Assembly (NCBI GenBank): GCA_963818475.1
Contig: CAWFSF010000006.1
Location: 224,001 to 288,000, forward strand
DNA: 64,000 nucleotides
Source of the DNA: Nitrospirota bacterium
Lineage (GTDB): Bacteria > Nitrospirota > UBA9217
Direction: 5' to 3'
A program made the translations under genes and the position numbers. Shown here piece by piece: positions 14,053 through 38,001 of the stretch (positions are counted from its first letter, which is position 1; each line of letters begins with the position of its first letter). The notes under the pieces were generated by a model. The model saw only the letters and a list, made by a program, of their open reading frames with translations, did not search any database and was not told the DNA's origin.

Positions 14053-14065
14053 GGAGGTAGAGTAT

Positions 14066-19213: not shown

Positions 19214-19334
19214 CTTTACGGGACTGGTTCTTTTTATTTTTGGTACACAAATGGTACACAGAATCAGGATGCAACGCATGTTCGATTTTAATCGTCACTC
19301 CGGGTCAAATTCCCCGCCGCTTGCGGTAGAGTTA

Positions 19335-19784: not shown

Positions 19785-20053
19785 GGTTCCCTCTCGCCGA
19801 TAGTTTTTTTTTGCATGCCGATAGGACCGAACTCGATCGCGGTGACATCTCCGTCGAGTGCCTTGATAATCTGGTAGCTTTTAAATCGTTCGCGGAAGGC
19901 AACTTGCTGGCGCTCATTCATCAGAGAAATCCCAAGTCTGATATGATCAATTTCCCGTTGACGCCACTTGTACTGGCGGTTACGGCTTTCCTTGTCATTG
20001 ACGAGCCATGTCACCGTTGAATAAATGCAGCTCGCTTCTTCCTTTTTATTCAT
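19781..20053 (-). CDS. Hypothetical protein
   Basis: GAGG RBS; stop overlaps the start of the XRE gene. Confidence 0.5.
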   Translation of the reverse strand: MNKKEEASCIYSTVTWLVNDKESRNRQYKWRQREIDHIRLGISLMNERQQVAFRERFKSYQIIKALDGDVTAIEFGPIGMQKKTIGEREP

Positions 20054-20209
20054 GAATACCTCATAATTTGTCCCGCCTATACGCCTGATCTGAGAATATG
20101 TCAACGATAGCGATGGGGTTTCCCGTAGAAACAGTTAAGTGCAATAAGCTCGTGATCGTAACAATGAAGTATAAAACTTACGATACCATTCGCGAAATGA
20201 CCCCACAAC

Positions 20210-20225
20210 CTACCCGAACGGGTAG
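20210..20225. promoter_or_regulatory. Palindromic operator CTACCCG-AA-CGGGTAG (NarL/LuxR-like)
   Basis: Perfect 7-2-7 palindrome in a divergent intergenic region; similar units at 32378-32425. Confidence 0.65.
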
Positions 20226-20441
20226 TATCCATTTATGCCTTTATTCCGTATAATCACTGTGAACGTGATCCTATAAATACAGGTACGTCATGGTCGTTAG
20301 CATAATTTCTGCGGAATGGCCTTCACATCACTACCTTCCTTGTTCTTTGACATAGCTGTCTGGTCGGCGTGCAACCAGCTTGGGGCCTGTACGTCGAAGC
20401 CGGTCACAACATACGTAGTCAATCAATAGAAAATAAATTTC

Positions 20442-20469
20442 TTGACAATAAAATATACACTCGTATACT
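20442..20469 (+). promoter_or_regulatory. Sigma70-type promoter upstream of the TonB receptor
   Basis: TTGACA-N16-TATACT. Confidence 0.55.
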
Positions 20470-20601
20470 TTTGCCACTTTAAACCGTCGCTTGTGGTCGT
20501 TTAACAAAATTGCAAATAAAGCAGGTGATCATGATGACTTCACGTTTTTCACATCGTCGCCATATCGCTACGACAGACGCATCGACCCTGAGGGCAAAGA
20601 A

Positions 20602-22477
20602 ATGATGCTACTTATCCGCCTGTCCTACATCTTCTTTATCTTTGTCAACTTGATGGTCCTGTTCCGATCCTCCGCCTCCGCCCAGTCGACCGAAGAGAAA
20701 GACTTTCTCCTGATGTACTTCAAGGAAGAGGAACTGGTCGTGGAAGCGCCGACGCGGGCAAGAAAATCCCTGGCCCAGACCGCGGAGAACGTGTCCGTGG
20801 TCACGGCCGACGAGATCAGGTTCATGAACGCCCATACAGCAGCCGAGGTGCTGAACACGGTGACGGGCGTGCAGGTCTTCCTGACGGGAGGTCCCGGCAG
20901 CAGCGCGACGGCGTTCATCCAGGGCTCGGGGAGCCGGCATGTGGCAGTCTTCATCGACGGCGTCCCGCTGAACAACCTTTCCGATAACGCGGCCGAGCTC
21001 GGGTCGCTCCCGGTCCAGAATATCGAGAAGATCGAGATCATCAAGGGACCGGCGTCGTCCGCCTGGGGATCAGCTCTCGGCGGTGTGATCAACATCATTA
21101 CCAAGGCGGGGCAGGACGAGGGGTTCGGCGGCGTGCTGTCGGCTTCATCAGGAAAGCATGATACGGGTGACTTCCGGGCCGAGGCATCGGGTAAAAAGGT
21201 GGGCGTGGGCTATTACCTTACTGCCGGCCGACTGCAAACCGACGGCTTTCGGCCACACAACGACTTCTCGGGGAACAATGCCTACGCGAAGCTGAGCTAT
21301 GATATCACGGGCGCTACGTCAGTAATTGCCACGGTGAGCTATGACAAGGTCGCGCGAGGGACTTGCTGAACTGCCCGATTTCGGCATCTTCGTGAACGAC
21401 GACATCAAGGCCGTGCGGTCCACCGTAACGTTTCGATCGTCCCTCTCCGAGAACACTGACCTGCATTTTACTGCCTGGCACCTGCGCCAGCACAGCGACT
21501 TCAGCAACATGCTCATCTCTTCGGGAGCGGAACTTTCAAAGGACCGTTATCTCGATGATGGATACGGCGGGAGCCTCAAGCTGACATGGAAAAGGCAGCA
21601 TCACAACATCGTTCTCGGCGGCGACTATGACTCCAGGATGTTGGACTCGAACGCCATCGCCGATAACAGGCAGGGGATCGATAAACAGGCTGCTTTTGTA
21701 AATGATACGATGTCTTTCGGCAGCCTGACTATCACCCCGGGCCTGCGGTATGATAAAACAGACACGAACGGTGATTTCACGAGCCCGAGCCTCGGAATGA
21801 TCTACCGGATCACGGAGACCACCTTACTGCGTGCGTATGCTGCCCGGGGATTCAGTGTGCCGGCGCTTGCGGGCACCTATGGAGATAATCTCTTTCATGT
21901 TTCCAATCCCGATCTGAAGATGGAAAATGTCAAGTCCTACCAGATAGGCGCGGAAACCACTGTTGAGAAGTATCTCTGGGTCAAAGTGTCGGGATTCAGG
22001 CACGATCTTGACGATGTTCTCGAGAACGTGGCGCTTTCCCCTATATCGTTCATTACGTTGAACACCGGCAGGGAAAGACGGGAAGGGTTGGAGGTCGAGC
22101 TCCGAACAGCTCCTGTCTACCATACAACGCTTAATGCCGGCGCGTCGTTCATCAGCGCGACGGACAGGGACACGGGCCAGACGATCAAGAGCGTGGCACA
22201 AAGGACCTATGACATAGGCTTGCAGTACGATGGAGACTCGTTCAAGGCGCTGGTGAAGGGGCATTATATCTACTGGAACACGGACAAGTTCTTTGAAGGG
22301 AAGTACGACGATTTTATCGTGGATGCCCATATTATGAAGACCCTGTATACGCGGAATGAGCACTCGCTTGAAGCCTTTGCCGATGTTCACAATCTCTTCG
22401 ATGACGAGCAATATCCAGCGGGTATATATAAGAACCCCGGGAGATGGTTCGAGGCAGGGGTTAGATATGTTTTTTGA
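20602..22477 (+). CDS. TonB-dependent receptor (frameshift near 21355)
   Basis: Plug motifs VFIDGVPLN and IEKIEIIKGPASSAWGSALGGVINIITK; barrel ends NPGRWFEAGVRYVF. Confidence 0.9.
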
Positions 22478-22522
22478 TCCATAACACAAAGAAGTCAACT
22501 ACTCTAGGGGGGAGGAAAGAGC

Positions 22523-22624
22523 ATGAAAAACCGGATTGTTGTGCTGAATAAGGGTGTTGAGAAAAAGCAGGTGGTAGAAGGACTCTGCTGTATGGGAGCA
22601 TACATCCCTTATCTGTGGATGTAG
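22523..22624 (+). CDS. 33-aa RiPP precursor, geopeptide-like: MKNRIVVLNKGVEKKQVVEGLCCMGAYIPYLWM
   Basis: Manual translation; RBS GGAGG; VLxxGV leader and CC motif; directly upstream of an rSAM/SPASM gene. Confidence 0.85.
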   Translation: MKNRIVVLNKGVEKKQVVEGLCCMGAYIPYLWM

Positions 22625-22635
22625 GCTGAGCTTTC

Positions 22636-22666
22636 GAGGGAGAGCGCTCCGCTCTCCCTCTTTTTT
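22636..22666 (+). terminator. Intrinsic terminator between precursor and maturase
   Basis: GAGGGAGAGCG-CTC-CGCTCTCCCTC followed by T6. Confidence 0.85.
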
Positions 22667-22702
22667 ATTTCTCATGAAGAAAGGCATCATTCACGGCTGC
22701 TG

Positions 22703-23992
22703 ATGAAATTATCTCGTTATTCCAAGACCTATCCTTCCCCGGAAGACCCTGATTCGGTCATTCTGTTCTCCACCAAGCGCGCCTCGACGGTTCTCGTCCC
22801 GAAGGGCCTCCTTGCGGACATCGAGGCGGGCAGGCTTTCCGGGGAGGAGCAGGCAGATCTTGCGGAGCTGGGCCTCGTGGCGCGCAGCGACGAGGAGGAA
22901 CGGCAGGAGCTGCTTTCCTATATCCAGGACATGAACGCCCTGGACCGGTCCATGAAGTTCATCGTCGTCCTGAACCTGGACTGCAACCTCGCCTGCCGCT
23001 ACTGCTTCGAAGGCGTCCGGAAAGGAAAACACTATCTTTCCGACGAGGCGGCGGCACGGTTCGTCGATTTCGTCATGACCCGCGACTACACGAACAAGGA
23101 TGATATCAAGATCGTCTTCTATGGCGGCGAGCCGCTCCTGTCCGTGGACCGGATCGCCGGCATCTCGGAACAGATCAAGACCTTTGCCGAAGGCAGGGGG
23201 ATGCGGTATGTCTTTTCCCTCGTGACCAACGGCGTGTTGTTGACCCCACAGGTAGTGAAGCGTCTCCAGCCCCTTGGCTTGAGAAGCGCCAAAGTGACGC
23301 TGGATGGACCGAAAGAGGTCCACGATGCGTTCCGGCCCTTCAGGAACGGCGCGGGGTCTTTCGACACGATCATGCGGAACGTGGGCGACGTGTCCAGTCT
23401 GATCCGTGTCCAGATCGGCGGCAACTTCACTCAGGATAACTATCGCCAATTCCCCCGCCTTCTGGACCTCCTGATGGAGAGGGGACTCGGCCCGGCCCGG
23501 ATCGCGGCGGTCAAGTTCGATCCCGTGGTCAACGAAAGCAGCGAGTTTGCCCTCCCGGACTTCCACGACGGGTGTGCTTCCATGGATGAGCCTTGGGTCG
23601 CCATGGCCTCGTTGCAGCTGCGCGAGGAAGTGCTGAAACGCGGGTACCAGACACCGAAGATCATGCCCTCGCCCTGCCTGATGGAACATGACGACAGCTT
23701 TGTCGTGAACTATGACGGCATCCTGTACAAGTGCCCCGGCCTGATCGGCAGGCAAGGCTGCCGCGCCGGCGATCTGGCGAGCGGACCGGGGGAATGCCGC
23801 GCGTCCCACGGGCTCGACGACTGGAAGAACGACGACTGCCTGGCTTGTGCCTATCTGCCGCTCTGCTTCGGGGGCTGCAAATACCTCAAGCTCGCCAGAG
23901 AGAACAGCATGAGGGGCGTTAATTGCCAAAAAAAGTATTTCGACCGGATCCTCGCGGCACTGGTGGCCCAGGACATCCGGTACGGGCTGTAG
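22703..23992 (+). CDS. Radical SAM/SPASM peptide maturase (geopeptide maturase-like)
   Basis: CNLACRYC, YGGEPLL, SPASM cysteines (PCLM..YKCPG..CLACAYLPLCFGGC..C), N-terminal LSRY extension. Confidence 0.9.
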   Translation: MKLSRYSKTYPSPEDPDSVILFSTKRASTVLVPKGLLADIEAGRLSGEEQADLAELGLVARSDEEERQELLSYIQDMNALDRSMKFIVVLNLDCNLACRYCFEGVRKGKHYLSDEAAARFVDFVMTRDYTNKDDIKIVFYGGEPLLSVDRIAGISEQIKTFAEGRGMRYVFSLVTNGVLLTPQVVKRLQPLGLRSAKVTLDGPKEVHDAFRPFRNGAGSFDTIMRNVGDVSSLIRVQIGGNFTQDNYRQFPRLLDLLMERGLGPARIAAVKFDPVVNESSEFALPDFHDGCASMDEPWVAMASLQLREEVLKRGYQTPKIMPSPCLMEHDDSFVVNYDGILYKCPGLIGRQGCRAGDLASGPGECRASHGLDDWKNDDCLACAYLPLCFGGCKYLKLARENSMRGVNCQKKYFDRILAALVAQDIRYGL

Positions 23993-24005
23993 TCCCGGTC
24001 ACTCC

Positions 24006-24938
24006 ATGATTACGCGCTTCTCTTTCATAGTAAAACCCGACAAGGCCTTCCTGGTCTTCCTCGTCCTGCTGGCCGCGCTTGCGGTCTTTGTCCTTGCGTG
24101 CCCTCTTCCTGCATCGTCCGCATGCGAGACAACTGTCGTCGTGAGCGCTGACCTAAAGCCCTATCGGGAGGTCCTCCAGGGTATCCGCGATGCTTCCGTC
24201 TGCACCGTGCGGGAGGTGACGTTGCGCGACGGCGACGCCCTGGAACGGGTGCGGCGGACATCGCCCAATGCCGTGGTCGCCATCGGGACCGACGCTTTCC
24301 GGACGGTCCGGCCGTTCCGGGACGCGCCGGTCGTCCATGTCATGGTGATCCCCTCCGTGGTCGAGCGCTCCCCGTCGGCAAACCTGTCGGGAGTGAGCAT
24401 GAGCATCGCTCCCGAGGCATGGCTGTCGGCGATCAAGCGCATGTTCCCCGGCGCGAAGCGGATCGGGCTGCTCTTCGATCCCCGGAATACGGGCCCCTTC
24501 GTCTCCGAGGCGGTGCTAGCCGCTCAGGCTGCCGGGCTGACGCTGAAAACGGCGGAGGTCAGTGGGGCAGATGAGGTTCCGAAGGCGCTGAACTCTCTCC
24601 GCGACTCGGTTGACGTGCTCTGGATGCTGCCGGATCCCGCAGTGACGTCGGCGCCGGTATTCGAGTATCTTGTCCGCTTCTCCATCCAGCATCGCATTCC
24701 CATCATGACCTTTTCAGAAAAATACCTGGAACTGGGCGCCGTGGCGTCGCTGGACGTGGACCCCTATGACATGGGCGTCCAGGCCGCGGAAATGGCGGCC
24801 CGGCTCGCGAGGGGCGGGGACGGGCCCGTGCGCGTCTTCGCGCGGAAAACGAAGCTCTCGTTCAACCGGAGCGCGGCGGGGAAGATGGGGGTCGTGATCG
24901 GCGCGGCGGTTTCTGAGAGGGGCCTTGCCGATGAATAG
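24006..24938 (+). CDS. ABC-type substrate-binding protein
   Basis: Signal/TM segment; KRIGLLFDP, VDVLWMLPD, DPYDMGVQAAEMA. Confidence 0.8.
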   Translation: MITRFSFIVKPDKAFLVFLVLLAALAVFVLACPLPASSACETTVVVSADLKPYREVLQGIRDASVCTVREVTLRDGDALERVRRTSPNAVVAIGTDAFRTVRPFRDAPVVHVMVIPSVVERSPSANLSGVSMSIAPEAWLSAIKRMFPGAKRIGLLFDPRNTGPFVSEAVLAAQAAGLTLKTAEVSGADEVPKALNSLRDSVDVLWMLPDPAVTSAPVFEYLVRFSIQHRIPIMTFSEKYLELGAVASLDVDPYDMGVQAAEMAARLARGGDGPVRVFARKTKLSFNRSAAGKMGVVIGAAVSERGLADE

Positions 24939-26856
24939 CTTCAGAATGGTCCTCAAGGAGCGATTCGGACTCAAGGTCATTACGGCATTCATTATCGTCA
25001 TCGCTGCGTCCTTCACCCTCTATACGGTCGTCTGGGCGGTCTATGAGATCGGCAGGCTCAGGCACAAGCTCGAGGACCAGGGTATCATGCTGACATCGCT
25101 CCTCGCGCGGGGGGCCGTGGTGGGCATCTTCACGGAGAACGAGGCGGAGCTCAAGCGGTCGGCGGCGGATGTCCTGAAGCTGCCCGACGTGGTGTCCGTG
25201 TCGCTGTTCAATGCAGAAGGACGGATGCTCTACCGGGGCAGCAGAATGGTCGGACGGCCCGGTCCCGGGACGTTGCCGGAGCGAAATGCACCGGGTCCGC
25301 CGGCTGGCACGGAGTTGGAGATCGCGGACCAGGCGGACGCGGTCAGTATCTCCCGGCCAGTCTTCAGCGCGTCTCTAGCCGATACGGATGAAACGCTGTA
25401 TTTCGGCTCGTCGACCGGTCTCGCGCGGGAGCGGATGATCGGTCATGTCCTGATCGTGATGAGCAAGGACAGCTACCGCAGCGAGATCGTCGCGCTCGTG
25501 GGAAGGAATTTGGGATTGATGGCGCTGTTCATCGCGGTAAGCGGCATTGTCGTGTGGGGCGCGGTCCGCAAGGTCACGCGTCCGCTCGAGCGGCTGACCG
25601 AGAGCGTAAGGGACTTCGAACGGGGGGTGCCGGTGGAGCCGGCGCCAGTCGAGACCGGAGACGAAATCGGAAGGCTGGCATCGGCATTCAACGACATGGT
25701 CGCGGCACGGCGGAAAACGGAGCTGTCCCTGCGCGAGAGCGAGGAGCGCTACCGGCGGCTTGTCGAACTCTCCCCGGACGCGATCTACGTGCAGCTTGAG
25801 GGAAGGATCGTCTTCATCAATAATGCGGGCGCGAGACTGCTGGGGGTGTCCGCTCCCGCGGACATCCTGGACCGGAAGGTCCTGGACCGCATTCATGAGG
25901 AAGACCACGAGACCGTCGTGAAACGGGCACTACAGGTCGAGGAAGAGGGGCGCGTCGTCACCTTCCTCCCGGTCAGGTATCTCCAGCCCGGCGGGACGGT
26001 CGTGGATGCCGAAGTGGCCGCCGCGCCCTTCCCGTTCCAGGGCAAGAGCGCCGTGCTGGTCATGGCCCGCGATATCACGGAGCGCAAGAGCCTGGAGGAG
26101 CTGGTCAGAGCATACCAGCGGGAACTGCATTCCGTGGAAAACGCAATGTCCTCGCTGGAATCGCAGATCGAGGAACGGGAGCGGCATCTTATTGCAGCGG
26201 ACCTGCATGATCATGTCGGCCAGAACCTGGTGGCGTCGCTGTTCAAATTGGGGCTCATGCAAAAGGGGATTTCTGCGCCCGGCGCGCTCAGGCACCTGGA
26301 GGAGATCCGCGATCTTCTCGGCCAGACCATCCAGTATACGAGGTCGTTGACTGTCGAACTCAGCCCGCCGGTCCTGTCGGAGATCGGTTTCAAGGCCGCG
26401 GTGGAGTCCCTGGCGGAGGGAATCGAAGCGGCTTACGGAATAACGGTCGCCGTCGAGGATGACGGCAGGTCCGATCTGATCGGCGAAAACGTCCGGAACC
26501 CGCTCTTCCGGTGCGTGCGCGAGCTGCTCATGAACGCCGTCAAACATTCCCGGGCGAGCGGCGTCGTGGTCTCCCTGGGAAGGGACAACGACCGGATAAG
26601 AATTACCGTTGTTGATAACGGGACGGGGTTCGATGCATCGGCGGTAACCGGGAAAAAGTCGGGGTTCGGGCTGTTCTCTGTCAGGGAGCGGATAAAGAGG
26701 CTGGGCGGCTCGTGCAGGATCGAAAGCCGGCCGGGGTCCGGAACAAAGGTTGTCCTGGAGGCGCCCTTGAAAGAGGACGTACAAGATAAAAATCTCGGGA
26801 GGGGCGCACCGGAAACAGGACAGGTCTTCGACAGGATAACAGGATCGACAGGATAA
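24931..26856 (+). CDS. Sensor histidine kinase (HAMP-PAS-HisKA_3-HATPase)
   Basis: Two TMs, DEIGRLASAFN, PAS, ERHLIAADLHDHVGQ, DNGTGF, GFGLFSVRER. Confidence 0.92.
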   Translation: MNSFRMVLKERFGLKVITAFIIVIAASFTLYTVVWAVYEIGRLRHKLEDQGIMLTSLLARGAVVGIFTENEAELKRSAADVLKLPDVVSVSLFNAEGRMLYRGSRMVGRPGPGTLPERNAPGPPAGTELEIADQADAVSISRPVFSASLADTDETLYFGSSTGLARERMIGHVLIVMSKDSYRSEIVALVGRNLGLMALFIAVSGIVVWGAVRKVTRPLERLTESVRDFERGVPVEPAPVETGDEIGRLASAFNDMVAARRKTELSLRESEERYRRLVELSPDAIYVQLEGRIVFINNAGARLLGVSAPADILDRKVLDRIHEEDHETVVKRALQVEEEGRVVTFLPVRYLQPGGTVVDAEVAAAPFPFQGKSAVLVMARDITERKSLEELVRAYQRELHSVENAMSSLESQIEERERHLIAADLHDHVGQNLVASLFKLGLMQKGISAPGALRHLEEIRDLLGQTIQYTRSLTVELSPPVLSEIGFKAAVESLAEGIEAAYGITVAVEDDGRSDLIGENVRNPLFRCVRELLMNAVKHSRASGVVVSLGRDNDRIRITVVDNGTGFDASAVTGKKSGFGLFSVRERIKRLGGSCRIESRPGSGTKVVLEAPLKEDVQDKNLGRGAPETGQVFDRITGSTG

Positions 26857-26931
26857 ATCCGTATCCGCTTTTTTTCCGGTAGCCCTGTCAAAAAACTCGT
26901 TGGTTCCGATTTGTAACCGAAAAGGGGTGGC

Positions 26932-27765
26932 ATGAGCATCCGGATACTTCTTGCTGACGATCATAAACTGCTGCGCGAGGGGCTGCGCTCGTTGATATCC
27001 GAACAGTCGGACATGTCGGTGGTAGCGGAGGCCGAGGACGGCAGGTCCGCTGTTCAACTGGCAGCCAGACTATCGCCGGATATTGTGATCATGGACATTT
27101 CGATGCCGGGAATGAACGGTATCGAAGCTACACGACTGATCGTGGCGGAAAATCCCGCCGTGAAGATCATGGCCCTATCAATGCATCTGGACCGGCGCAT
27201 GGTGCTGGAAATGTTCAAAGCCGGCGCATCCGGCTATCTCCTGAAGGAATGCGCTTTTGATGAGGTGGTCCATGCCGTGCAGCTCGTTGCGTCGAAAGGC
27301 ATCTATCTCAGTCCGAGGGTCGCAGACGTTCTTCTCAAGGACTATATTCACGGCGTCCAGAAGGGAGAACTGGCACCGTTATCCGAAGTGCCGAAGCAGG
27401 AGCGGGCAGTTCTTCACCTGCTGGAGGATGGCAAAGATATGAAAGATATCGTTTCCGCTCTTCATATAAGCATCAAGAATGCCGAGTCCTGCCGCAGGCA
27501 GATGATCCTTGATCGCATCCTGCCGTATCTTCTCCGCGCACAGAGTGAAACTGCGGCTGGATTTGCCGTCTCACTGACGCCGCGGGAACGGGAAATCCTA
27601 ATCTGGGTCAAGGACGGCAAGAGCACCGGTGAGATCGCATCCATTCTCACAATAAGCCAGGACACTGTGAAATTTCATATGAAAAACGTATTCCAGAAAC
27701 TCAATGCCATCAGCAGGTCGCAGGCCATCGCCATCGCGATCGAGAACAAGCTCATAGAGTCTTGA
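26932..27765 (+). CDS. NarL/LuxR-family response regulator with two HTH-like regions
   Basis: LADDH, MDISMPGMNG, GYLLK; degenerate HTH, then LTPREREIL..TVKFHMKNVFQKL. Confidence 0.9.
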   Translation: MSIRILLADDHKLLREGLRSLISEQSDMSVVAEAEDGRSAVQLAARLSPDIVIMDISMPGMNGIEATRLIVAENPAVKIMALSMHLDRRMVLEMFKAGASGYLLKECAFDEVVHAVQLVASKGIYLSPRVADVLLKDYIHGVQKGELAPLSEVPKQERAVLHLLEDGKDMKDIVSALHISIKNAESCRRQMILDRILPYLLRAQSETAAGFAVSLTPREREILIWVKDGKSTGEIASILTISQDTVKFHMKNVFQKLNAISRSQAIAIAIENKLIES

Positions 27766-27937
27766 TCGCGATGGATCCGTATCCGCCGAACAGATCAAGG
27801 CCCTGCCAGTAAGTGAAAAAGGGGATCTGCCTGTCCGCGAGAGGAGAGCATGTCCGGCATTAACACCTTGTTGAATAAGTCTTTACGAAATAGGCTGATT
27901 CGTCAACAGCTTGTTCATGCTCTCCGGGCCCCAAACA

Positions 27938-28435
27938 TCATTGAGCCTGTTCCGCCTGGACCGTTTGCGCCAGCGATATCTCTTCGGTGGAAAATACCTT
28001 GTCGATCTCAAGGACGATGATGAACCGGTCGTTCTGTTTTCCCATTCCCTGGATGAATTCCGTGTTCAGGCGCGCCCCGATCCGCGGCACCGGCTGGAGC
28101 GTGTCCGCATCCAGCTCGATCACTTCCTGCACGGAGTCTGCGAGGGCCCCGAGGATCGTGGTCTTCCCGTCCACCTCGATTTCCGCGATGATTACGCAGG
28201 TGTTCACCGATCTCTTCGTCACGGCCATGCCGAGCTTGAGCCCGAGGTCTACCACGGCTACCACACTTCCCCGCAGGTTGATCACTCCCCGCAGGAAGTC
28301 CGGCATCCGGGGCACCTTCGTCACGGTCGTGAAATCCAGCACTTCGCGGACCCTGGCGATGTCAAGGGCGAAAACCCCGTCGCCGAGCCCGAAGGTCAGA
28401 TACTGTTTCGTTGCTGTTATATCCGTTGTTGTCAT
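27938..28435 (-). CDS. cheW: Chemotaxis coupling protein CheW
   Basis: QYLTFGL, VREVL, PDFLRGVINLRG, GALADSVQEV. Confidence 0.93.
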   Translation of the reverse strand: MTTTDITATKQYLTFGLGDGVFALDIARVREVLDFTTVTKVPRMPDFLRGVINLRGSVVAVVDLGLKLGMAVTKRSVNTCVIIAEIEVDGKTTILGALADSVQEVIELDADTLQPVPRIGARLNTEFIQGMGKQNDRFIIVLEIDKVFSTEEISLAQTVQAEQAQ

Positions 28436-28487
28436 CGGTTCCTTTCTGCGGGTCAGAGCCGCCCCCAGGCTCCCGGTCCGTCCACTC

Positions 28488-30059
28488 CTAGAATTTCTCG
28501 AACTCCCTGTCCCGGGGGTCGCCGTTCCCGCCCGACCCATGCCGACCCATGTCGAGCGCCGCGCCGGAAGGCCGGGTCGCGCGATGCGCCGCCCCGGAAG
28601 CGGCGAGGCGCGCGATGGGGGTCAGGACGGCGGGAGCGGCCAGTGTTCGGGGTGCCGCGCTTTTCATCGCTGCGCGTGTGCTGTCGATCGTGAAGAATCC
28701 CACTGTTTCCAGGAGCTGATCCGACTGGGATGAAAGTTCCTGTGCCGTCGAGGCCATCTCCTCGGCCGATCCCGCATTCTGTTGGATCACCTTGTTCAAC
28801 TGCTGGATCGAACTGTTGATCTGGTCCGCTCCCGAGGCCTGCTCCTTGCTGGACGCGCTGATTTCCTGCACGAGTTCGGATGTTTTTTGGATATCTGGGA
28901 CGAGCCTGTTCAGCATTGCCCCGGCGTTCTCTGCCACATCGACGCTCGAGCTGGACAATTTGCCGATCTCTCCGGCAGCCACCTGGCTCCGTTCCGCGAG
29001 CTTCCGCACCTCGGCAGCCACCACGGCGAACCCCTTGCCGTGCTCGCCGGCGCGCGCTGCCTCGATCGCGGCATTCAATGCCAGCAGGTTGGTCTGCCGT
29101 GCGATCTCCTCGATTACGGAGATCTTCCCGGCAATGTCCTTCATGGCCTTAACCGCCTCGGACACGGCCTTGCCGCTCTCCAGTGCGTCGTTAGCGCTTT
29201 TTCGTGCGATCGTTTCAGTCGCTACGGCGTTGTCGGCATTCTGCCTGATCGTTGCATGCATCTCCTCGATCGATGCGGAAGCTTCTTCAGCCGAGGCCGC
29301 TTGTTCAGTCGTGCCCTGTGACATCTGCTCGGACCCGGACGATAGTTGTCTGCTGCCGAAGGCAACATTATCGGCCGCGTTCTTCACATCCGACACGACG
29401 CCTTGCAGTTTCTGCACCATGGTTCCGATGGAAATGAAGAGCTTCCCTATCTCGTCACCTGACTCGGCCGTGATGGAACGGGTCAGGTCGCCGTTGGCCA
29501 CCTGCGCGACCGCTGCGTTCAGGCGGTCGATGGGCTTCAGCGCAAGGTATCGGAAGAGCTGGTAAACGATGAGCGATACCAGGAGCATGGTCCCGATGGA
29601 CAGACCGGCGAGGATTGCCTGCGACTGCCGCAATGCGTTCCCGATGCTGGCCGTGGAATAGCCGATCCTGACCATACCGATCTTCTCGCTCTCTTGCTGG
29701 ATCGGACTGGAGAACTCTATGACGTTCGCCGTTGTCGACTCGGTCTGCCGATACTCCGTCAGCACCTTGTCTTCACGGTCCGTAACGGCAGCGAAGACGA
29801 TGTTTTTATCCCCGGCGCCGACGTACCGCACCTGGTTCTCCAGTGCGGCGAAGTTGAAGCTCAGAATCGGCTCAGCGGAAATCGCCGCCAGGATCCTCGC
29901 CACGTTCTCGCCCTTCCCGCTGAGCTCGTTCACGAGCACCCTCTTTTCATGGGCGTTGATGACGAGGCCCATGGCGGTGAAGATCAGCAGAAGGCCTAGC
30001 AGGATGCTCACCAGGAATTTTCTGGTGAGCGTCCAGTGGAACAGAAAACTGTTTGTCAT
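28488..30059 (-). CDS. Methyl-accepting chemotaxis protein
   Basis: Two TMs, [34 protein letters not shown]. Confidence 0.95.
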
Positions 30060-30130
30060 GGTTTCATCTCCTTGTTCGCGCCGCCACCGTCCGCCGAAAC
30101 GGGGACCCGGGCCGCGACGCGGTTCGCGTC

Positions 30131-30994
30131 CTAGAGCGCCCCGGCTACCTTCGCGGCCTTCCGGAGCTCGTCGTACTCCTTGTCGATGATCGGGATAAAG
30201 CCGGTAAGCCGTGCCGGACCGAGGATATTCTCGTTCTGCGGGTCGTTCGGCTTCAGCTTGAGCAGGGCGGTCCGTATCTTTGCCGCCATCTCCGGCTTCA
30301 GCTTCGGCGTGGCGAAGAATGGCCAGTTGGGGAAATAGTCGGTATAGCCCACGATCCTGATCTGGGAAATATCCAGCTTGCCCTTCATCTTTTCCAGCTC
30401 GTCTTCCCGGATGCCGCCTGCATCGGCAGTCTTGTTGAATACGGCCGTGGTGATGTTCTCATGCTTCTTCGCAAAGGGAAGGAGAGAAATGTCCTTGTTG
30501 ACGTCGAACCCCGCCTTGCTCAAAAGCAGCATCTGAAAGATGTACCCCGCGGCGGAATCCTTGTCCATGAAGACGAACTTCTTTCCTTTCAGGTCCTGGA
30601 TCTTGTTGAAGCCGCTGTCCTTTCTCACGATAATGATCCCGCGGAACCGGGTGCCGCTCTTCACCTCCGATGACAGGGCGAGGGGTTCAATGTTGCTCAT
30701 CTCCTTCGCCTGGACATAGATGAGCGGATTTGCGAACCCCACATCCATCTGTCCCGTTTTTACGGCGTCCTTGAAAGCATTGAAGTCCTTGGGGATCACG
30801 ATGGTAACCTTTTCCCCGGTTTCCCTGCTCAAGTACTCGGCAAGGGGACTATACATGGCCTGCAGCTCAGGCGCGCTGAGGCGGGGCAGCGTCCCGAACT
30901 TGATCTCCGCCGAAGCAACGCCTGCCCCGAACGCGATGAACGCCGCGACAACAAGCACAACCGTCATTACCGTCTTCATGAAACTCCTCTTCAT
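30131..30994 (-). CDS. PhnD/SsuA-type periplasmic substrate-binding protein
   Basis: Signal peptide; [25 protein letters not shown]. Confidence 0.85.
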
Positions 30995-31177
30995 ACAACC
31001 TCCTTTTGTTATGGTTATTTATTTTGCTGCTCAAGTATCAAATTATGCTCAGCAAGAGAATGAACGATCAAGCCCTTCATTCAGGATCACCAGGAAACGC
31101 AAAGTCTTGACATCCGATGCCCGCTCTGTTCGTCCCCCCCGGTTTCCTGTTCTGAGCCTGTCCTGCTGCGGACTGGA

Positions 31178-32266
31178 TCATGCAACCCGGCCGCCCACCC
31201 TGCTCCAACTGGCCTCCAGAAGGCGCTCCCGCACCATGCGCAGGTAGTCCGCCCGGAATTTCCGCAGCTGATAATCGCGGTAATTGCTCTCCCTGAGATC
31301 GGCCCATGCCTGCAGCTTGTTCGCTTCGTTCCGTTTTCTGGCAGCGGCGATCATCTCGTGCGTTATGACCGCCGGGCGCGTAGTGAGCTTTTCGTATCCG
31401 TAGTAGTCCATAAATTCGCCTGTCAGGGTCTCGATGACGGCGATCTCATCGAGGGACAGTGTCTTCTTGAACTTGTCGATGTTTGCCGGAATGGGAGCTT
31501 TGGCATTGGATTCCCACAGGGAGGACATGACTGAGATCTTCCGGGCCTCTTGAGAGCGGGAGACGTCGAGCATGGCGGGAAAATATTCGATGCCGAAGAA
31601 CGAACAGATCTTCCTGAGCACGGCCTCCTGGCTGGACACGAAGTCCTCGTAGCGGATGGTCAGGACCCTTTTTGGGTACCTGTCCGCAAGCTTTTTGCCC
31701 GCTTCATAGGCATTCACCCAGATCATGGTGTTCAGGAGCGTGTCGAAATCGTGAATGATGGCCTTGTTCATACTGCTGACCTGGGCGCGCGGATCGCGCA
31801 CCACGTTCAGGAACAGGAGGTCGTCGAAAAGCGACATCAGCTCGTCCGCGTTCTGCACGCTGTCCAGCGATTTATCCATGACGACGCGGGCCCCCCGTTT
31901 CGCGCCTGCCTGGAACAGCAGCTCTGCGACCACCCGGTGCACGCTCCGCGGTTCGTCCTTGACGGCGTTTAATATTTCTTCCGGATCGAAGACCACGTCG
32001 GGCCATTTCACCATGCTCACGGTCTGCAGGCCGATGACGTCGACGATCATCTGAAAATATGCCCGGTCGTCGCGCAGATCGCCGTAGAGCTCCATGAGGG
32101 GCATGAAGTCGACGATATGCAGGGGGTAGGGCGCATAGAACTCGGGATTGAAGTTCAGCCTGAGCCGAAGCGCGTGGCTGCCGCATCGCCGGAGCGGGAT
32201 CATCAGCACCGGTCTCGGTCTGTTGCGTGATACGACTTCGCTCTGTTGCACGGTATGGTTCTCCAT
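31178..32266 (-). CDS. PAPS-dependent sulfotransferase (Sulfotransfer_3-like)
   Basis: PLRRCGSHALR (5'-PSB-like), DKS, VVRDPRAQVSS (3'-PB), IRYEDFV. Confidence 0.85.
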   Translation of the reverse strand: MENHTVQQSEVVSRNRPRPVLMIPLRRCGSHALRLRLNFNPEFYAPYPLHIVDFMPLMELYGDLRDDRAYFQMIVDVIGLQTVSMVKWPDVVFDPEEILNAVKDEPRSVHRVVAELLFQAGAKRGARVVMDKSLDSVQNADELMSLFDDLLFLNVVRDPRAQVSSMNKAIIHDFDTLLNTMIWVNAYEAGKKLADRYPKRVLTIRYEDFVSSQEAVLRKICSFFGIEYFPAMLDVSRSQEARKISVMSSLWESNAKAPIPANIDKFKKTLSLDEIAVIETLTGEFMDYYGYEKLTTRPAVITHEMIAAARKRNEANKLQAWADLRESNYRDYQLRKFRADYLRMVRERLLEASWSRVGGRVA

Positions 32267-32377
32267 GATGAACAGTCTCCTTTCACGTTTTCCCAGCAGT
32301 CCTATGCACGAAAACGATCGGTACGTTTCGGCATCAAGTGCGACAAAATATATCACCCTCCCGCTGACAATACTACC

Positions 32378-32425
32378 TGCCTAGATGGGTAGGTACCCGT
32401 ATGGGTAGGTACCCGTATGGGTAGT
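32378..32425. promoter_or_regulatory. Three tandem 16-bp palindromic operators (TACCCGTATGGGTAG)
   Basis: tgcctagatgggtagg-tacccgtatgggtagg-tacccgtatgggtagt in the divergent sulfotransferase/cysQ region. Confidence 0.7.
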
Positions 32426-32490
32426 TACGCACGGTGCAGGAATTGTGTACATTAATGCTAATCATGAACATGATCATGCAGGATCCAGAC

Positions 32491-33255
32491 ATGCTTAAGT
32501 ATCTCGCGGACGCGGAACGCAAGGCTGGGGAGGCGATCCTGGGCGTCTACGGCAGTGCCGTGCAAGCGGAGCTCAAGGCCGACTCAAGCCCGGTGACCGC
32601 GGCGGACCGGCTCTCTCACAAGGTCCTGGTGGATTATCTTGCCCTGACATCCTCCTTTCCGGTCCTGAGCGAAGAGGGGAAGGATGTCCCCTATGAGGTA
32701 CGCAGACACTGGGAAACCTTCTGGCTCCTGGACCCGCTGGACGGGACCAAGGAGTTCATCAGCCGGAACGGAGAGTTCACGGTGAACGCGGCGCTCATCC
32801 GCCGGGGACTGCCGGTCATGGGCGCCATCTACGCACCGGTGAAGGACCTGCTCTATACCGCGATCAAAGGCGGGGGCGCATACCGGACAGCGCATGGCGA
32901 GACCGTCCGGCTCCCCGTCGATCACCGGCGAAAGGGCTGTGTCGTTGCAGGAAGCCGTTCCCACGCGTCCCGGGAGTTCGACGAGTACGTGCAGGCGCTC
33001 CGGGCCAGGCACGACGATCTTGTATTCCTGTCGGCCGGCAGCTCGCTGAAATTCTGTCTCGTGGCCGAAGGGGCCGCCGACCTGTATCCGCGCCTCGGGA
33101 CCACCATGGAATGGGACACCGCCGCGGGCCAGCTGATCGTGGAGGAGGCCGGGGGCCGGGTGGTGGAAGCGGCAAGCGGCAGGCCGCTTCGGTACAACAA
33201 AGCTGATCTGCGGAATCCTCATTTTATCGTCACCGGGAGGGAATGGCATGAATGA
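32491..33255 (+). CDS. cysQ: 3'(2'),5'-bisphosphate nucleotidase CysQ
   Basis: KADSSPVTAAD, LSEE, DPLDGTKEF, SRSH, GSSLKFC, EWDTAAGQ. Start uncertain. Confidence 0.93.
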   Translation: MLKYLADAERKAGEAILGVYGSAVQAELKADSSPVTAADRLSHKVLVDYLALTSSFPVLSEEGKDVPYEVRRHWETFWLLDPLDGTKEFISRNGEFTVNAALIRRGLPVMGAIYAPVKDLLYTAIKGGGAYRTAHGETVRLPVDHRRKGCVVAGSRSHASREFDEYVQALRARHDDLVFLSAGSSLKFCLVAEGAADLYPRLGTTMEWDTAAGQLIVEEAGGRVVEAASGRPLRYNKADLRNPHFIVTGREWHE

Positions 33256-35068
33256 GAAATCACTTATTGCGAAACTCGTGGCGCCTTACGGCGGGAAGCT
33301 GGTGGACCTCTTCGTTCCCGAAGGGGAGCGCGACATCTTCGTGCAGAGGGCGAAACACCTACCCTCCATCCAGATATCCTTTCGGTCGGTTTGCGACCTG
33401 GAACTGATGGCGGTCGGCGCCTTCTCACCCTTGGAGCGGTTCATGGGTGAGAAGGACTATCGTTCCGTGCTTCAGCACATGCGGATGGCCGACGGAACGC
33501 TCATGCCGATTCCCATTACCCTGCCTGCCGACAGTGTTGACGGTCTGACGATCGGCAAGGAGCTGGTGCTGCGAAGCCCGACGAACGAGATGTTGGCCAT
33601 CATGCTTCTGGAGGAGGTGTTTCCCTGGGACCTCGAACAGGAGTGCACCGCAGTGCTCAACACAACCGATTCGAGACACCCGCTGGTATCGGAGATGCAT
33701 ACCTGGGGCAGGCATTACCTGTCCGGGCCGCTGAGGGTACTGAACCTGCCTCGTTACAACGACTTTCCGGACCTGAGAAAGACGCCGGCCGAGGTCCGCA
33801 TGATGCTGGAGGCAATGGGGCGGGACCATGTGGTCGCCTACCAGCCGCGGCATCCCATGCACCGTGCCTACGAGGTCCTTACGAAAGCGGCCGCCGAGGA
33901 GACGGACGGATCGCTACTCATCCACCCCTTCGCCAGCATCACCGGGTACGGCGACCGGGAGCACTTCACGCGGGTGCGGTGCTACAGGACGCTCATCGAA
34001 AACCACTACGATCGCGGCCGGACGCTGATGAACCTCATCCCTCTCGCGGTGCGCATGGCGGGGCTCCGGGCCGGGCTGTGGCACGGCATCATCAACCGGA
34101 ATTACGGCGCCGACCACTTGCTCATCGGCGGCGATTCCCAAGGCCCCGGCAAGGATTCCCGCGGCAGGGCCTTGTACGCCTCCCGCGACGTCCAGGAGTT
34201 CTTTCGGGCACTTGAGAACGAGATCGGCGTACGCATAACCCCCCTTAAAGAAATGGTCTACCTGCCCCGAAAAGACCGGTTCGAAGCTGCCGATACGGTC
34301 GTGCACGGATCGGAAGAATACATCCGCGTATCGGCTGTGAAGGAGATCGAGGAATCCCTGTTCCGGGGTACGCTGCTTCCTGAATGGTTCACTCATCCGG
34401 AGGTGGCGCAGATCCTGTACGAGGCGAACCCGCCGAAGACGCGTCAGGGCTTTTGCGTCTGGCTCACCGGACTGCCGAGTTCGGGGAAGTCGACCATTGC
34501 CGATATCCTCGTGCCCCTGCTCATGGCCGCGGGCAAGAAGGTGACGCTTTTGGACGGAGACGTGGTGAGGACGCACCTGACCAAAGGCCTCGGTTTCAGC
34601 AAAGAGGACCGGATCACGAACATCCTGCGCGTCGGATTTGTTGCGTCCGAAGTGGTGCGGCACGAGGGTGTGGCGGTCTGCGCGCTGATCAGCCCCTTCG
34701 AGGTGGCCCGGGACCAGGTGCGAGCCCTCGTTGATGGGGAGCGGTTCATCGAGGTATTCGTGGACACGCCCGTTGCTGTCTGCGAAGTGCGGGATGTGAA
34801 GGGCATGTACACCATGGCGAAGAACGGCAAGATCAAGGGCTTCACCGGCGTCGACGATGCCTATGAGCCGCCCCGGTCGCCGGAACTCTGCATCGATACC
34901 ATCTCGATCTCGCCGGACCAGTGCGCCCGGATGATCATGACGCACCTGATGGAAAAAGGGTTCCTGCCGACGAACGGCAGGGAGGCGGCGCGGCAGGTCG
35001 TTCGACAGGACCTCGCGCGGACGATGAGCAACCGCCCGGAGAACGTGCAATGGCTGAAGCAGCCATGA
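33248..35068 (+). CDS. Bifunctional sulfate adenylyltransferase / adenylylsulfate kinase (Sat-CysC); Sat motifs degenerate
   Basis: GAFSPLERFM, RNYGADH; kinase WLTGLPSSGKST, LLDGDVVR, RDVKGMY, FTGVDDAYEPP. Confidence 0.88.
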   Translation: MNEKSLIAKLVAPYGGKLVDLFVPEGERDIFVQRAKHLPSIQISFRSVCDLELMAVGAFSPLERFMGEKDYRSVLQHMRMADGTLMPIPITLPADSVDGLTIGKELVLRSPTNEMLAIMLLEEVFPWDLEQECTAVLNTTDSRHPLVSEMHTWGRHYLSGPLRVLNLPRYNDFPDLRKTPAEVRMMLEAMGRDHVVAYQPRHPMHRAYEVLTKAAAEETDGSLLIHPFASITGYGDREHFTRVRCYRTLIENHYDRGRTLMNLIPLAVRMAGLRAGLWHGIINRNYGADHLLIGGDSQGPGKDSRGRALYASRDVQEFFRALENEIGVRITPLKEMVYLPRKDRFEAADTVVHGSEEYIRVSAVKEIEESLFRGTLLPEWFTHPEVAQILYEANPPKTRQGFCVWLTGLPSSGKSTIADILVPLLMAAGKKVTLLDGDVVRTHLTKGLGFSKEDRITNILRVGFVASEVVRHEGVAVCALISPFEVARDQVRALVDGERFIEVFVDTPVAVCEVRDVKGMYTMAKNGKIKGFTGVDDAYEPPRSPELCIDTISISPDQCARMIMTHLMEKGFLPTNGREAARQVVRQDLARTMSNRPENVQWLKQP

Positions 35069-36297
35069 ACGAACAGGACATGACCGCGGCGGAACAGCGG
35101 CCCGCCGGTCCGGTATCGCTGGGATCGCTGTTCCTCACGTTCCTCAAGATCGGGAGCACCGCTTTCGGCGGCTTCATGGCGCTCATATCGGTCGTGCAGA
35201 ACTACGCCGTGGAGCGGAACAAACTGCTCAAACACGAGGACATGCTCGACGGCGTCTCGCTGGCCACGATCCTTCCCGGCCCGATCGCGGTGAACGTGGT
35301 AGCCTACGTGGGATACCGGGTGCGCGGCGCAATGGGCGCCCTGGTGAGCGTGGCGGGGGTGATCCTTCCGTCTTTCCTGCTCCTCGTGGGACTGAGCTAC
35401 GCCTACTTTCAGTTCGGCCAGTTGCCCGCAGTGGGGATGCTCTTCCTGGGGTTCATTCCCGCAGTAGCCGCCATCATTCTGGTGGCGGCATGGAACATGG
35501 GAAAGAAGGCGGTCCAGGGCATCCCTGAGTCGCTCATCGCCCTCACTGCCGCCGGCCTCCTCCTCGGCATCGGCGGTTTTCTGGTTATCCTCGGCATTAT
35601 CGCAGCGAGTGCGCTGGCGGGGTGGATGCTGTTCCGTAAAAGACCGTCCGGGACTGCGGGGAACGAGGCGCAGGCCGCTCGCCGCTCGCCCGAGAAGACG
35701 ACCGGTATCGGCGACCGTTCCCGGCTGCACAGCGCTGCCGCAGTCACCCTGCCGGGCGCTCCGTTCTTGAGCCTCAACGCGGCCGTGCTGGGCCAGCTCC
35801 TCATGACCTTCGGCGGCATGAGCGTACTGCTCTTCGGAGGCGGCTATGTGTTCATCCCGATGATCCAGCATGTCGTCGTGGACGGTTACGGGTGGGTCAC
35901 GCAGCAGGAGTTCATCGACGCCATCGCCCTGGGCCAGGTGACGCCGGGGCCCATCCTCATCAGCGCAGCCTTTATCGGCTACAAAGTGGCAGGCCTGGCC
36001 GGCGCTGTGGCGGCCACCGTCGGCATTTTCACACCGCCCGCGCTGGTTATGATCCTCTGCACAAGGTTCCTGGACCGCATTAACCGTTCGGTGGGCATAA
36101 GGGCGGGTTTGCGCGGCATCCGCCCGGCGGTGATCGGCATGATCGCCGCTGCCGGACTGACGGTGGCGCGAACGGCGCAGGTCAGTGGGGTATCCTTCCT
36201 GATCTTCGGCGCTGCCCTCCTCGCGCTGCTCCGGTTCAAGGTGGAGACCGCATGGATCATTCCCGCGGCAGGGATCGCAGGGTTGCTGCTGTACTGA
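35065..36297 (+). CDS. chrA: Chromate/oxyanion transporter (long-chain CHR family)
   Basis: FLKIGSTAFGG, LPGP, LFGGGY, GQVTPGP. Confidence 0.9.
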   Translation: MNEQDMTAAEQRPAGPVSLGSLFLTFLKIGSTAFGGFMALISVVQNYAVERNKLLKHEDMLDGVSLATILPGPIAVNVVAYVGYRVRGAMGALVSVAGVILPSFLLLVGLSYAYFQFGQLPAVGMLFLGFIPAVAAIILVAAWNMGKKAVQGIPESLIALTAAGLLLGIGGFLVILGIIAASALAGWMLFRKRPSGTAGNEAQAARRSPEKTTGIGDRSRLHSAAAVTLPGAPFLSLNAAVLGQLLMTFGGMSVLLFGGGYVFIPMIQHVVVDGYGWVTQQEFIDAIALGQVTPGPILISAAFIGYKVAGLAGAVAATVGIFTPPALVMILCTRFLDRINRSVGIRAGLRGIRPAVIGMIAAAGLTVARTAQVSGVSFLIFGAALLALLRFKVETAWIIPAAGIAGLLLY

Positions 36298-36634: not shown

Positions 36635-38001
36635 ATGGGCGTCATCATGCAGGCATTCTACTGGGATTGCCCCAGGATCGAGGGGAAAGAATTCGAGTGG
36701 TGGAACCATGTAAAGGGTGAAATTCCCGCATTGCAGTCCGCGGGTTTCACCGCGCTCTGGCTGCCTCCCGCTTCCAAGGCGGCGAACGTCGGCGGCATGT
36801 CGATGGGGTACGACGTCTACGACTACTACGACCTGGGGAAATACCCGCAGAAGGCGGTCAGAAAAATAAACGACAAGGACGAGGTCAGGACCTGGTTCGG
36901 CTCGGAAGAGGACCTGCGGTCCCTGATCAAGACCGCGCACGCAAAGGAGCTGAAGGTCTACGCGGACCTGGTCCTGAACCATAACAACGGCGCGGACGCC
37001 GAAGAGCTCAACCCGATCACGAACAAGACGCGGTGGACGCGCTTCACGCCCCAGAGCAAACTCTTCACCCGCGACTGGACCTGCTTCAACCCCTCGCCGT
37101 ACCGCGAATGCGGACAACGCCGCCTTCGGCGACATGCCCGACCTCTGCCACATCAACCCGCGCGTTTCGACCGGCATCCTCGAACCACGCCAAGTGGATG
37201 ATCGAGGAGATCGGTTTCGACGGCTTCCGCTACGACTTCGTCAAGGGCTTCGGCGCCTGGATCGTCCGGGCGATCCACGACCGGAGCTACACGCGCGGCA
37301 ACAGACCGGTGGAGCTCTTCGGCGTGGGCGAATGCTGGGCCGGCGACGATTACATCGACGGCTGGCTCGATGAGGTCAACAGCTGGGCCGCGCAGCGGGT
37401 CGGCGCGTTCGATTTCCCGCTCCGCTACCGGCTGAAGGAGCTCTGCGATTCCTACGGCTTCAGCCTGCGGCGGCTCGTCGAGGGCGGCGTGCTCATGAAG
37501 GACCGTCCCTTCGAGGCCGTGACCTTCGTGGACAACCACGACTTTCGCGGCGACGACAACCCGGGGATCGTGAACGACAAGATGCTTGCCTACGCCTTCA
37601 TCCTGACCCACGAGGGCTATCCCTGCGTGTTCTGGCAGGACTATTACGCATGGGGCCTTGGTAAGGCAGGAGAGCAGAACGGCATAGCGGCCCTCGTAAG
37701 GGTGCATGAAGACCACGCAGGCGGCGAAACGTCCGTCCTCTACGTCGACGACAACCTCTACGTCATGCAGAGGAACGGCTTCGGAGCGCAGAAGGGATTG
37801 ATCTTTGTCCTGAACAACCGGGGGGATGCATGGAACGGGGCATGGGTCGGGACGCAATGGAAAAACACCCAATTCGTTCCCGTTGCATGGTGCGGACGCG
37901 ATGATGCCCGCATTCCGCAGGTGCAGCAGACCCAGGAGGACGGATCGGGAGAGTTTTCCGCGCCGCCGAGGGGATATGCGGTGTATGTGCCGCGGGAATA
38001 A
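36635..38001 (+). CDS. GH13 alpha-amylase (frameshifted near 37110-37185)
   Basis: MQAFYW, GYDVYDYYDLG, DLVLNH, DGFRYDFVKG, VGECW, FVDNHD. Confidence 0.88.

Follow-up and report, generated by a model that had tools for sequence, protein, structure and literature searches.

Within a 64,000-nucleotide stretch of Nitrospirota DNA (contig CAWFSF010000006.1, positions 224,001 to 288,000; hereafter the window), an operon for a TonB-dependent receptor, a 33-amino-acid peptide precursor, a radical S-adenosylmethionine (radical SAM) maturase, a periplasmic binding protein, a histidine kinase and a response regulator is followed by genes for chemotaxis and sulfation. The same palindrome, TACCC-N4-GGGTA, stands before the operon and between the divergent sulfotransferase and cysQ-sat-chrA genes. 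The locus thus raises the question of whether one regulator joins the two gene sets, and whether the peptide is a signal that its own locus makes, sulfates and senses, as the initial annotation proposed. Our answer, to which we give an even chance as a whole, is that the locus carries a geopeptide signalling system which activates itself and, as an accessory output regulon, sulfation and chemotaxis genes. For comparison, 339 radical SAM loci were confirmed in one scan of species-representative genomes; all counts below refer to the best 80 of these 339 (designated L001 onwards), taken with flanks of 10 kb per side, and 29 of the 80 are covered over 9 kb in each direction.

The palindrome occurs in exact form at positions 20211, 32394 and 32410, three occurrences against 0.01 expected, and none of 100 shuffled sequences contained three or more. 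The three tandem units described earlier between the divergent genes are two exact units and one degenerate unit, at 32378, with two mismatches (TGCCT..GGGTA); they form an array at 32375..32426 with a period of 16 nt. The palindrome is part of a longer 20-bp site, and a -10 hexamer lies 21–22 nt past the window sites. Unit 1 of the array is oriented to the left, towards the sulfotransferase-phnD-mcp-cheW genes, and unit 3 to the right, towards cysQ-sat-chrA. The triple array is also present in L001 and L002, where the arms are conserved and the 4-nt spacers altered. The exact palindrome was found in four of the 80 loci (L001–L004), each time including a site 5' of the TonB gene. When a matrix derived from this same group was used for scanning, 18 sites were found in 74 kb of the L001–L004 group; five canonical-NarL loci gave none in 85 kb, and the remaining loci three in about 1 Mb. 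A -10 hexamer is located 20–22 nt beyond 16 of the 22 boxes, compared with 6.6% in AT-rich background, and three of the six boxes lacking this spacing are middle units of the triple array. This offset places the 20-mer near -43, in a promoter geometry predicted from the -10 hexamers. The palindrome behaves as a real operator, predicted to link the peptide operon with two divergent sulfur/chemotaxis promoters.

Judging from its distribution and from the DNA-binding domains, this operator probably works through the regulator encoded in the locus itself. In that protein, a receiver (REC) domain is followed by a NarL-derived helix-turn-helix (HTH1), which is truncated and drifting (conservation 0.67 among 34 homologues), and by an added HTH2, which is conserved (0.90) and matches EpsA, CsgD and SdiA best. 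The two-HTH regulator is limited to the window and L001–L004, precisely the loci with the exact palindrome, and a quick tree gives it a single origin; the HTH2 type is present in 14 further loci. NarL-family regulators bind TACYY-type inverted heptamers, and the palindrome had been explained in this way. This rationale is not supported: the NarL HTH is the one that drifts, the conserved HTH is EpsA/SdiA-like, and the sister loci with an intact NarL domain carry another motif. A TACYY scan gave 307 matches and had no discriminating power. The box looks like an activator site of lux-box type rather than a pair of NarL heptamers.

An unbiased dyad screen of the loci with a LuxR-type HTH yielded ACCTG-N10-CAGGT, which we take to agree with the ends of the lux box. 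Such a box stands at -70/-71 from the projected TonB start in four of the six REC-LuxR-HTH loci with upstream sequence, and in none of 42 unassigned, 6 mini-HTH and 4 NarL loci. Because the dyad occurs at any position in 17% of shuffles, only this common position is informative. Two other dyads from the screen, ATAAT-N7-ATTAT and GGAAC-N7-GTTCC, were dropped, those checked being at scattered or shared neighbouring-gene positions, and an alignment of nine upstream DNA regions was uninformative overall. The canonical-NarL loci have a third motif, whose pattern was derived from these loci themselves, with five matches in four of the five loci and none in the other 76 sequences. It lies directly 5' of sat in L012, and in L009 it faces cheW-sat-chrA-sulfotransferase-phnD-mcp. 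Since two other regulator types have their own operators, one of them before sat, the shared regulon of the initial annotation is supported: the palindrome joins both gene sets in the window, and the link to sat recurs through a different motif. The recognition helix varies with the box arm, QDTVKFH occurring with ACCTACCC and ERTVNFH-like helices with ACCTGT; the window HTH2 may prefer ACCTACCC, and the HTH of L060 may prefer ACCTGTCA. That three operator types track three regulator types is good indirect evidence for their binding by the regulator of the locus.

According to the available text of PMC4471428 and PMC7585371, the palindrome of the lux box spans 20 bp and has its centre at -42.5. 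The window site resembles that system, as described there, in being a 20-bp imperfect palindrome near this position, in its proposed positive feedback and in the EpsA/SdiA-type HTH. Unlike LuxR, however, the window regulator has a phospho-receiver REC domain at its N-terminus instead of a domain for acyl-homoserine lactone (AHL), and no LuxI was found among the window open reading frames (ORFs) scanned. The circuit has LuxR-like promoter logic but is not a LuxR/AHL system.

The maturase exceeds the cut-off of the geopeptide model TIGR04280, while the precursor scored 13.8 bits against TIGR04229, below the cut-off of 30. None of 28 precursors scanned reached 30 (best, 23.3), and the window precursor is therefore classed as geopeptide-like only. 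The locus agrees with the geopeptide system in its maturase and in the short Cys-Cys precursor directly 5' of it, and differs in this precursor score. The maturase has a CX3CX2C motif and eight invariant C-terminal Cys residues; its nearest solved relative is 5WGG, which we take to be CteB, and its next-best models, CefB, TIGR04463, CtpM and PapB, are all below cut-off. Named maturase homologues are from Nitrospirota, and geopeptide relatives occur in Nitrospirota, Geobacteraceae and Desulfobacterales. Precursors were found by script in 77 of the 80 loci, with Cys-Cys in 76 of the 77; two further precursors, picked out by eye, have a single Cys. Wherever found, the precursor is placed between the TonB and radical SAM genes, even where the orientation of the binding protein and kinase genes flips. 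The tail after Cys-Cys is highly variable, and one genome bin holds four loci with different cores (L031, L032, L034 and L038). Acidic acceptors are present in 2 of 77 cores. As in sactipeptides and ranthipeptides, a SPASM maturase is found with conserved core Cys donors, and the enzyme probably joins the core Cys residues as thioether cross-links, as judged from the SPASM cysteines and the neighbouring models. A profile-library search with the peptide gave six true homologues; two long repeat proteins also matched and were rejected as spurious.

Some precursor leaders (L015, L017, L018, L020, L024, L037 and L053) are enlarged by Lys/Ala-rich histone-like repeats, with the Cys-Cys core kept, and a tandem pair of precursor genes is present in L068 (9642-9933) and L079 (9663-9924). 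The maturase of L004 (CAVOUC010000029.1), a contig filed as Alphaproteobacteria, is sister to that of the Nitrospirota locus L005, which points to mis-binning or transfer. The window has a second radical SAM/SPASM gene (40996-42620), which is PapB-like with a score below the cut-off; the 150-aa ORF after it matched no family, and no precursor was identified there. Literature searches on 'geopeptide', TIGR04280 and TIGR04229, with most subscription journals outside their coverage, returned no paper on the family and nothing tying it to TonB, binding protein and kinase genes or to an operator.

The initial annotation had also named the receptor, binding protein and kinase as the sensors of the peptide. 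They do travel with it, and sensing would follow from this constant co-location. The TonB receptor gene is directly 5' of the radical SAM gene in 78 of the 80 loci (L021 reaches a contig end, and L030 lacks the gene). The PF04392 binding protein is encoded in 66, downstream in 38 and divergently in 28, and the kinase gene is adjacent in 57. We consider it possible, at somewhat less than an even chance, that the peptide is the ligand sensed by the locus. Given the radical SAM sequence, core and TonB receptor were correlated with r=0.12, p=0.08 (partial Mantel test, 52 of 80 loci), a weak value confounded by shared descent. A predicted complex of the L001 TonB receptor with the precursor (score 0.02, mark 0.32) was of no use as evidence. 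Reading the receptor as a transporter for B12 uptake was rejected, the BtuB models being far under cut-off and a riboswitch scan of the window and seven loci finding none.

The circuit that we propose would run as follows. The radical SAM/SPASM enzyme would act on the 33-aa precursor and modify its Cys-Cys core, probably by thioether cross-linking, and the product would leave the cell, which is the weakest step. The TonB receptor would then re-import the product, and the binding protein and the kinase would read it. The phosphorylated regulator would bind the 20-bp box through its added LuxR-type HTH and activate, from about -43, its own operon in a positive feedback, as well as sulfotransferase-phnD-mcp-cheW and cysQ-sat-chrA. 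For this last step the site, its geometry and the co-distribution of operator and regulator are observed. Precursor, maturase, kinase and regulator genes stand together with a site 5' of the operon, presumably bound by the regulator, in the window and L001–L004, and in four of the six REC-LuxR-HTH loci. The sulfation cassette, mobile and free-standing, would sulfate another acceptor or tune the levels of 3'-phosphoadenosine 5'-phosphosulfate (PAPS) and its product PAP, and would not tailor the peptide. The weak links are export, TonB uptake and sensing by the binding protein and kinase.

Several observations weigh against this circuit. The window gene inventory agreed with the initial annotation in gene order, the 33-aa precursor, the sulfotransferase, cysQ, sat/cysC and chrA; the TonB gene, however, is frameshifted. 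As the receptor is one unbroken ORF in seven related loci (L001, with 624 aa, and L002, L003, L007, L009, L011 and L020), the frameshift would be an assembly error or a recent lesion. Other window genes are also split into overlapping frames (alpha-amylase, 36635-38001; helicase, 15503-17042; PAS/HD protein, 59514-61734), a pattern that agrees with indel errors and is relevant to the frameshift in TonB. Many sites of the two-HTH clade are orthologous and represent a single evolutionary event, and the counts therefore overstate independence. Outside this clade, just 4 of 11 boxes have the -10 spacing, and an upstream box was sought in the sigma54-type and mini-HTH loci and none was found. The structures nearest to the binding protein are 3LKV, 3LFT (Trp-bound) and 6HNI, and its nearest solved relatives include an L-Trp-bound structure and sugar binders, but no peptide binder. 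No exporter or peptidase family recurs widely across the 80 loci, and the window locus has no gene for export or leader removal (no RaxABC-type exporter in 20602-36297, in a window that covers 64 kb of the genome). A partial Mantel test over 52 of 80 loci detected no co-evolution between core and binding protein. A half-size MFS protein of about 190 aa is encoded directly 3' of the maturase in 12 of the 80 loci (for example L065:11305-11871), none of them in the clade of the window, and elsewhere in the locus in L072; it is a candidate peptide exporter for its own clade.

The small-ligand relatives, the missing exporter and the absent co-evolution also favour an alternative in which the receptor, binding protein and kinase sense an outside small molecule, such as an aromatic amino-acid derivative, a metal complex or a cofactor, and the peptide is a co-regulated product, for example a Cys-based chelator, a cofactor or an intracellular modulator. 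Related single-domain binding proteins are encoded near chemoreceptor genes, according to the part of PMC10805632 available, and modules of TonB, YfiR-like and kinase genes have NCBIfam models of their own. Against it stands the constant place of the precursor, described above, which persists where the binding protein and kinase genes are flipped. The hypervariable tails and the differing cores among paralogous loci of one genome fit a specificity code better than a cofactor, and no oxidoreductase or ABC permease family recurs across the 80 loci. We regard this alternative as rather unlikely. A different doubt is raised by a perfect ACCTG-N10-CAGGT box at 56692-56718, with TATAAT at the +21 offset, divergent from a globin gene and followed by 450 nt without an ORF. 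It may point to a further LuxR-type regulator encoded in the genome, or to a small RNA, and adds to the points against our circuit. The boxes could then be bound by a global quorum-sensing LuxR from elsewhere, and the locus would be a downstream target without a feedback loop; a full-length LuxR whose N-terminal region is EpsA/SdiA-like is encoded in L021, and the window is only 64 kb of the genome. However, each of the three operator types follows the regulator type of its own locus, and the changes in the recognition helix parallel those in the box arms, and a global LuxR thus appears improbable.

The remaining alternative is that of the initial annotation, in which the sulfotransferase, with PAPS from sat/cysC, sulfates a core Tyr to give a cross-linked sulfopeptide signal. 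The operator shared by the peptide operon and the sulfur genes is real. The predicted sulfotransferase fold matches tyrosylprotein sulfotransferases (TPSTs) with Z 18.3–18.6, root-mean-square deviation (rmsd) 4.0–5.5 and 240–263 aligned residues, a tie within one Z unit with the olefin-synthase (polyketide) sulfotransferase (Z 18.7, rmsd 4.2, 246 aligned). The Tyr of the core motif PYLW is retained in the window and L001–L003, and two pairs of radical SAM and sulfotransferase homologues are possibly from the same contigs. These last three points count for peptide sulfation and thereby against our circuit. With 10-kb flanks, moreover, L002 could have a sulfotransferase past chrA, and L012 one after sat. 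On the other hand, only 26 of 77 cores contain Tyr, and Asp or Glu precedes it in none of the 77, the window core included; in RaxX and most TPST substrates, by contrast, Asp stands just before the Tyr, according to the available text of bioRxiv 10.1101/116897 and PMC9372746. Within the flanks covered, sulfotransferase-family genes occur in 2 of 80 loci, the copy in L009 being a paralogue of 29% identity; the co-occurrence with the precursor that the earlier proposal called for is thus wanting. L001 has retained the enzyme and lost one Tyr, and L002 has two Tyr and no enzyme at that position. The cores of L009, with the paralogous sulfotransferase, and L012, with sat, have no Tyr, the family is widespread, and the cassette occurs alone on Serratia plasmids. 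Because Tyr is not conserved, no acidic-Tyr site exists, Tyr-free cores accompany sulfur genes and the cassette exists without a ribosomally made peptide with post-translational modification (RiPP), sulfation of the peptide is poorly supported, with less behind it than any other part of the initial annotation, and we consider it very improbable. The Xanthomonas RaxX/RaxST system, as far as PMC9372746 and bioRxiv 10.1101/116897 describe it in the text available, likewise combines a short peptide gene with PAPS supply and a sulfotransferase, whose TPST-like fold the window enzyme may share. The window locus differs in having no Asp-Tyr site, no RaxABC-type exporter and no such co-occurrence, and in a cassette that exists without the peptide; it is not a RaxX-type RiPP.

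In our circuit the sulfation cassette is probably a co-regulated output and not a peptide-tailoring step. The sequence profile of the sulfotransferase favours OLS/CurM. Its family is wide, with homologues from Curvibacter, Symploca and Acidiferrobacterales at 64–67%, and an Atlas cluster reached through a homologue has 487 members, Pseudomonadota being commonest. Sulfur genes are found in L001, L002, L009 and L012, all within one 14-row subclade of a quick tree that includes the window. On a Serratia plasmid (L081:2988-9029, NZ_CP074141.1) a sat/cysC-tauE-sulfotransferase-cysQ-chrA cassette is present, with no radical SAM match on the plasmid; its sulfotransferase has 54.5% identity to the L009 copy and 31% to that of the window. 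The plasmid is conjugative, and the cassette is flanked by transposase-like genes. A literature search on sulfotransferase, cysQ and chrA together returned nothing on such a cassette. Box-linked genes in related loci encode REC, MshEN-like and PilZ-like proteins (domain labels partly by eye). A precedent for PAPS as a regulatory output is Vibrio vulnificus, where, in the available text of PMC6113621, PAPS is a biofilm signal and PAPS-making genes belong to a regulatory loop tied to cyclic di-GMP (c-di-GMP) and surface behaviour. This is an analogy only, as the window cassette adds a sulfotransferase and ChrA.

Table 1. Positions and basis of the features of the geopeptide locus and of its sulfation and chemotaxis genes.
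Feature	Position	Strand	Basis or remark
20-bp operator ACCTACCC-N4-GGGTAGTA, lux-box-type, centre about -43	20208..20227		5' of peptide operon; counterpart before TonB in L001–L004
-10 hexamer TATAAT	20249..20254	+	21 nt past operator; -10-like hexamer at equal offset in L001, L002, L004
Near-consensus sigma70-like second promoter	20442..20469	+	11/12 matches; similar element in L001; may give basal expression
TonB-dependent receptor, frameshifted near 21350	20602..22477	+	Pfam Plug and barrel; ORFs 20602-21369 and 21341-22477
Geopeptide-like precursor, 33 aa, leader and CC core CCMGAYIPYLWM	22523..22624	+	Sole NCBIfam match TIGR04229, below cut-off
Terminator-like hairpin and T-run	22636..22660	+	11-bp stem between precursor and maturase; putative function; the scan yields such sites at chance level
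Geopeptide radical SAM/SPASM maturase	22703..23992	+	TIGR04280, 562.9 bits (cut-off 400), residues 1-427
Periplasmic binding protein PF04392	24006..24938	+	No ABC permease; putative sensor partner of kinase
Membrane histidine kinase, sCache-HAMP-PAS-HisKA_3-HATPase	24925..26856	+	Domain matches
Response regulator, REC, decaying NarL HTH and added quorum-sensing-LuxR-type HTH	26932..27765	+	Conservation of the two HTHs, 0.67 vs 0.90
CheW	27938..28435	-	Family match; predicted start codon
Methyl-accepting chemotaxis protein (MCP)	28488..30059	-	Family match
PhnD-like oxyanion-binding protein	30131..30994	-	Likely MCP partner, from adjacency (window, L001, L002, L009)
PAPS-dependent sulfotransferase PF13469	31178..32266	-	TPST/olefin-synthase-type fold
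Leftward -10 hexamer TATATT	32347..32352	-	22 nt from operator unit 1; serves sulfotransferase-phnD-mcp-cheW; same in L001, L002
Three overlapping 20-bp operators, 16-nt period	32375..32426		Between two divergent promoters
Rightward -10 hexamer TACATT	32448..32453	+	21 nt from operator unit 3; serves cysQ-sat-chrA
CysQ PAP phosphatase	32491..33255	+	TIGR01331 over cut-off; predicted start codon
Bifunctional sulfate adenylyltransferase/adenosine 5'-phosphosulfate kinase (PAPS-making)	33248..35068	+	NF004040, 719.6 bits (cut-off 669)
ChrA-family oxyanion transporter	35050..36297	+	TIGR00937 over cut-off; predicted start codon

Other features of the window were recorded around the locus. Relative to L001, an element is inserted at about 9500-20200, after two tRNAs, and stops just 5' of the operator; it holds an integrase fragment, a DnaB-like protein, a TOTE primase, the split helicase, HTH genes and an intron. 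A recent burst of spread is indicated by four group II introns of 1.92 kb (17297-19215, 42829-44747, 44956-46874 and 47791-49708), which are nearly the same in sequence, have identical reverse transcriptase genes and include two copies about 210 nt apart, and by a 3' remnant at 53811-53947. The 3' end of the alpha-amylase gene is partly duplicated near 40617-40768.

Peptide quorum sensing belongs mainly to Gram-positive bacteria. The SCIFF ranthipeptides have been connected with quorum sensing in clostridia (Chen et al. 2020, as cited in the available text of PMC8326336 and PMC9389541), and the proposed circuit resembles such a loop of peptide autoinduction. They share with the window system a radical SAM/SPASM-modified Cys peptide proposed as a signal, and the solved structure 5WGG nearest to our maturase. 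They differ in their Gram-positive hosts, while the window has an outer-membrane receptor, a periplasmic binding protein, a LuxR-type HTH and two adjacent core Cys residues. The streptococcal shp/rgg RaS-RiPPs likewise combine a radical SAM RiPP cluster with a peptide-sensing regulator. In the available text of PMC9389541, however, they have a separate short autoinducer peptide and their own peptidase/transporter, neither of which was seen in the window. Our literature searches on RiPP, TonB and kinase in Nitrospirota, on YfiR and TonB, and on radical SAM, quorum sensing and Geobacter returned nothing on a system of this kind. The parts are of known kinds; their proposed wiring as a self-activating circuit across the envelope, with swapped operators, was not found in the literature retrieved.

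A broader reading, which we offer tentatively and hold to be somewhat doubtful, is that geopeptides are a family of radical SAM-cross-linked autoinducers of double-membrane bacteria (Nitrospirota, Geobacteraceae and Desulfobacterales). Each variable core would be a private signal, taken up through a dedicated TonB receptor and read by a binding protein with a kinase, and at least two swaps of the regulator's DNA-binding domain and operator would have rewired the outputs in sulfation, chemotaxis and c-di-GMP. In the clade of the window the peptide might, though very improbably, carry a sulfated Tyr as well. The locus is a clear natural case of a regulator that acquired an additional HTH and, along with it, a new operator. 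Direct tests of the system are possible in E. coli, given the operators, the geometry of the start sites, the cognate HTH and natural peptide/receptor sets by the dozen. If the proposed circuit is true, a TonB receptor, a binding protein and a kinase would together read a RiPP through two membranes, with lux-box-like feedback; a named RiPP family on which our searches returned no papers would gain a function, and uncultured Nitrospirota and relatives of Geobacter a further signalling route.

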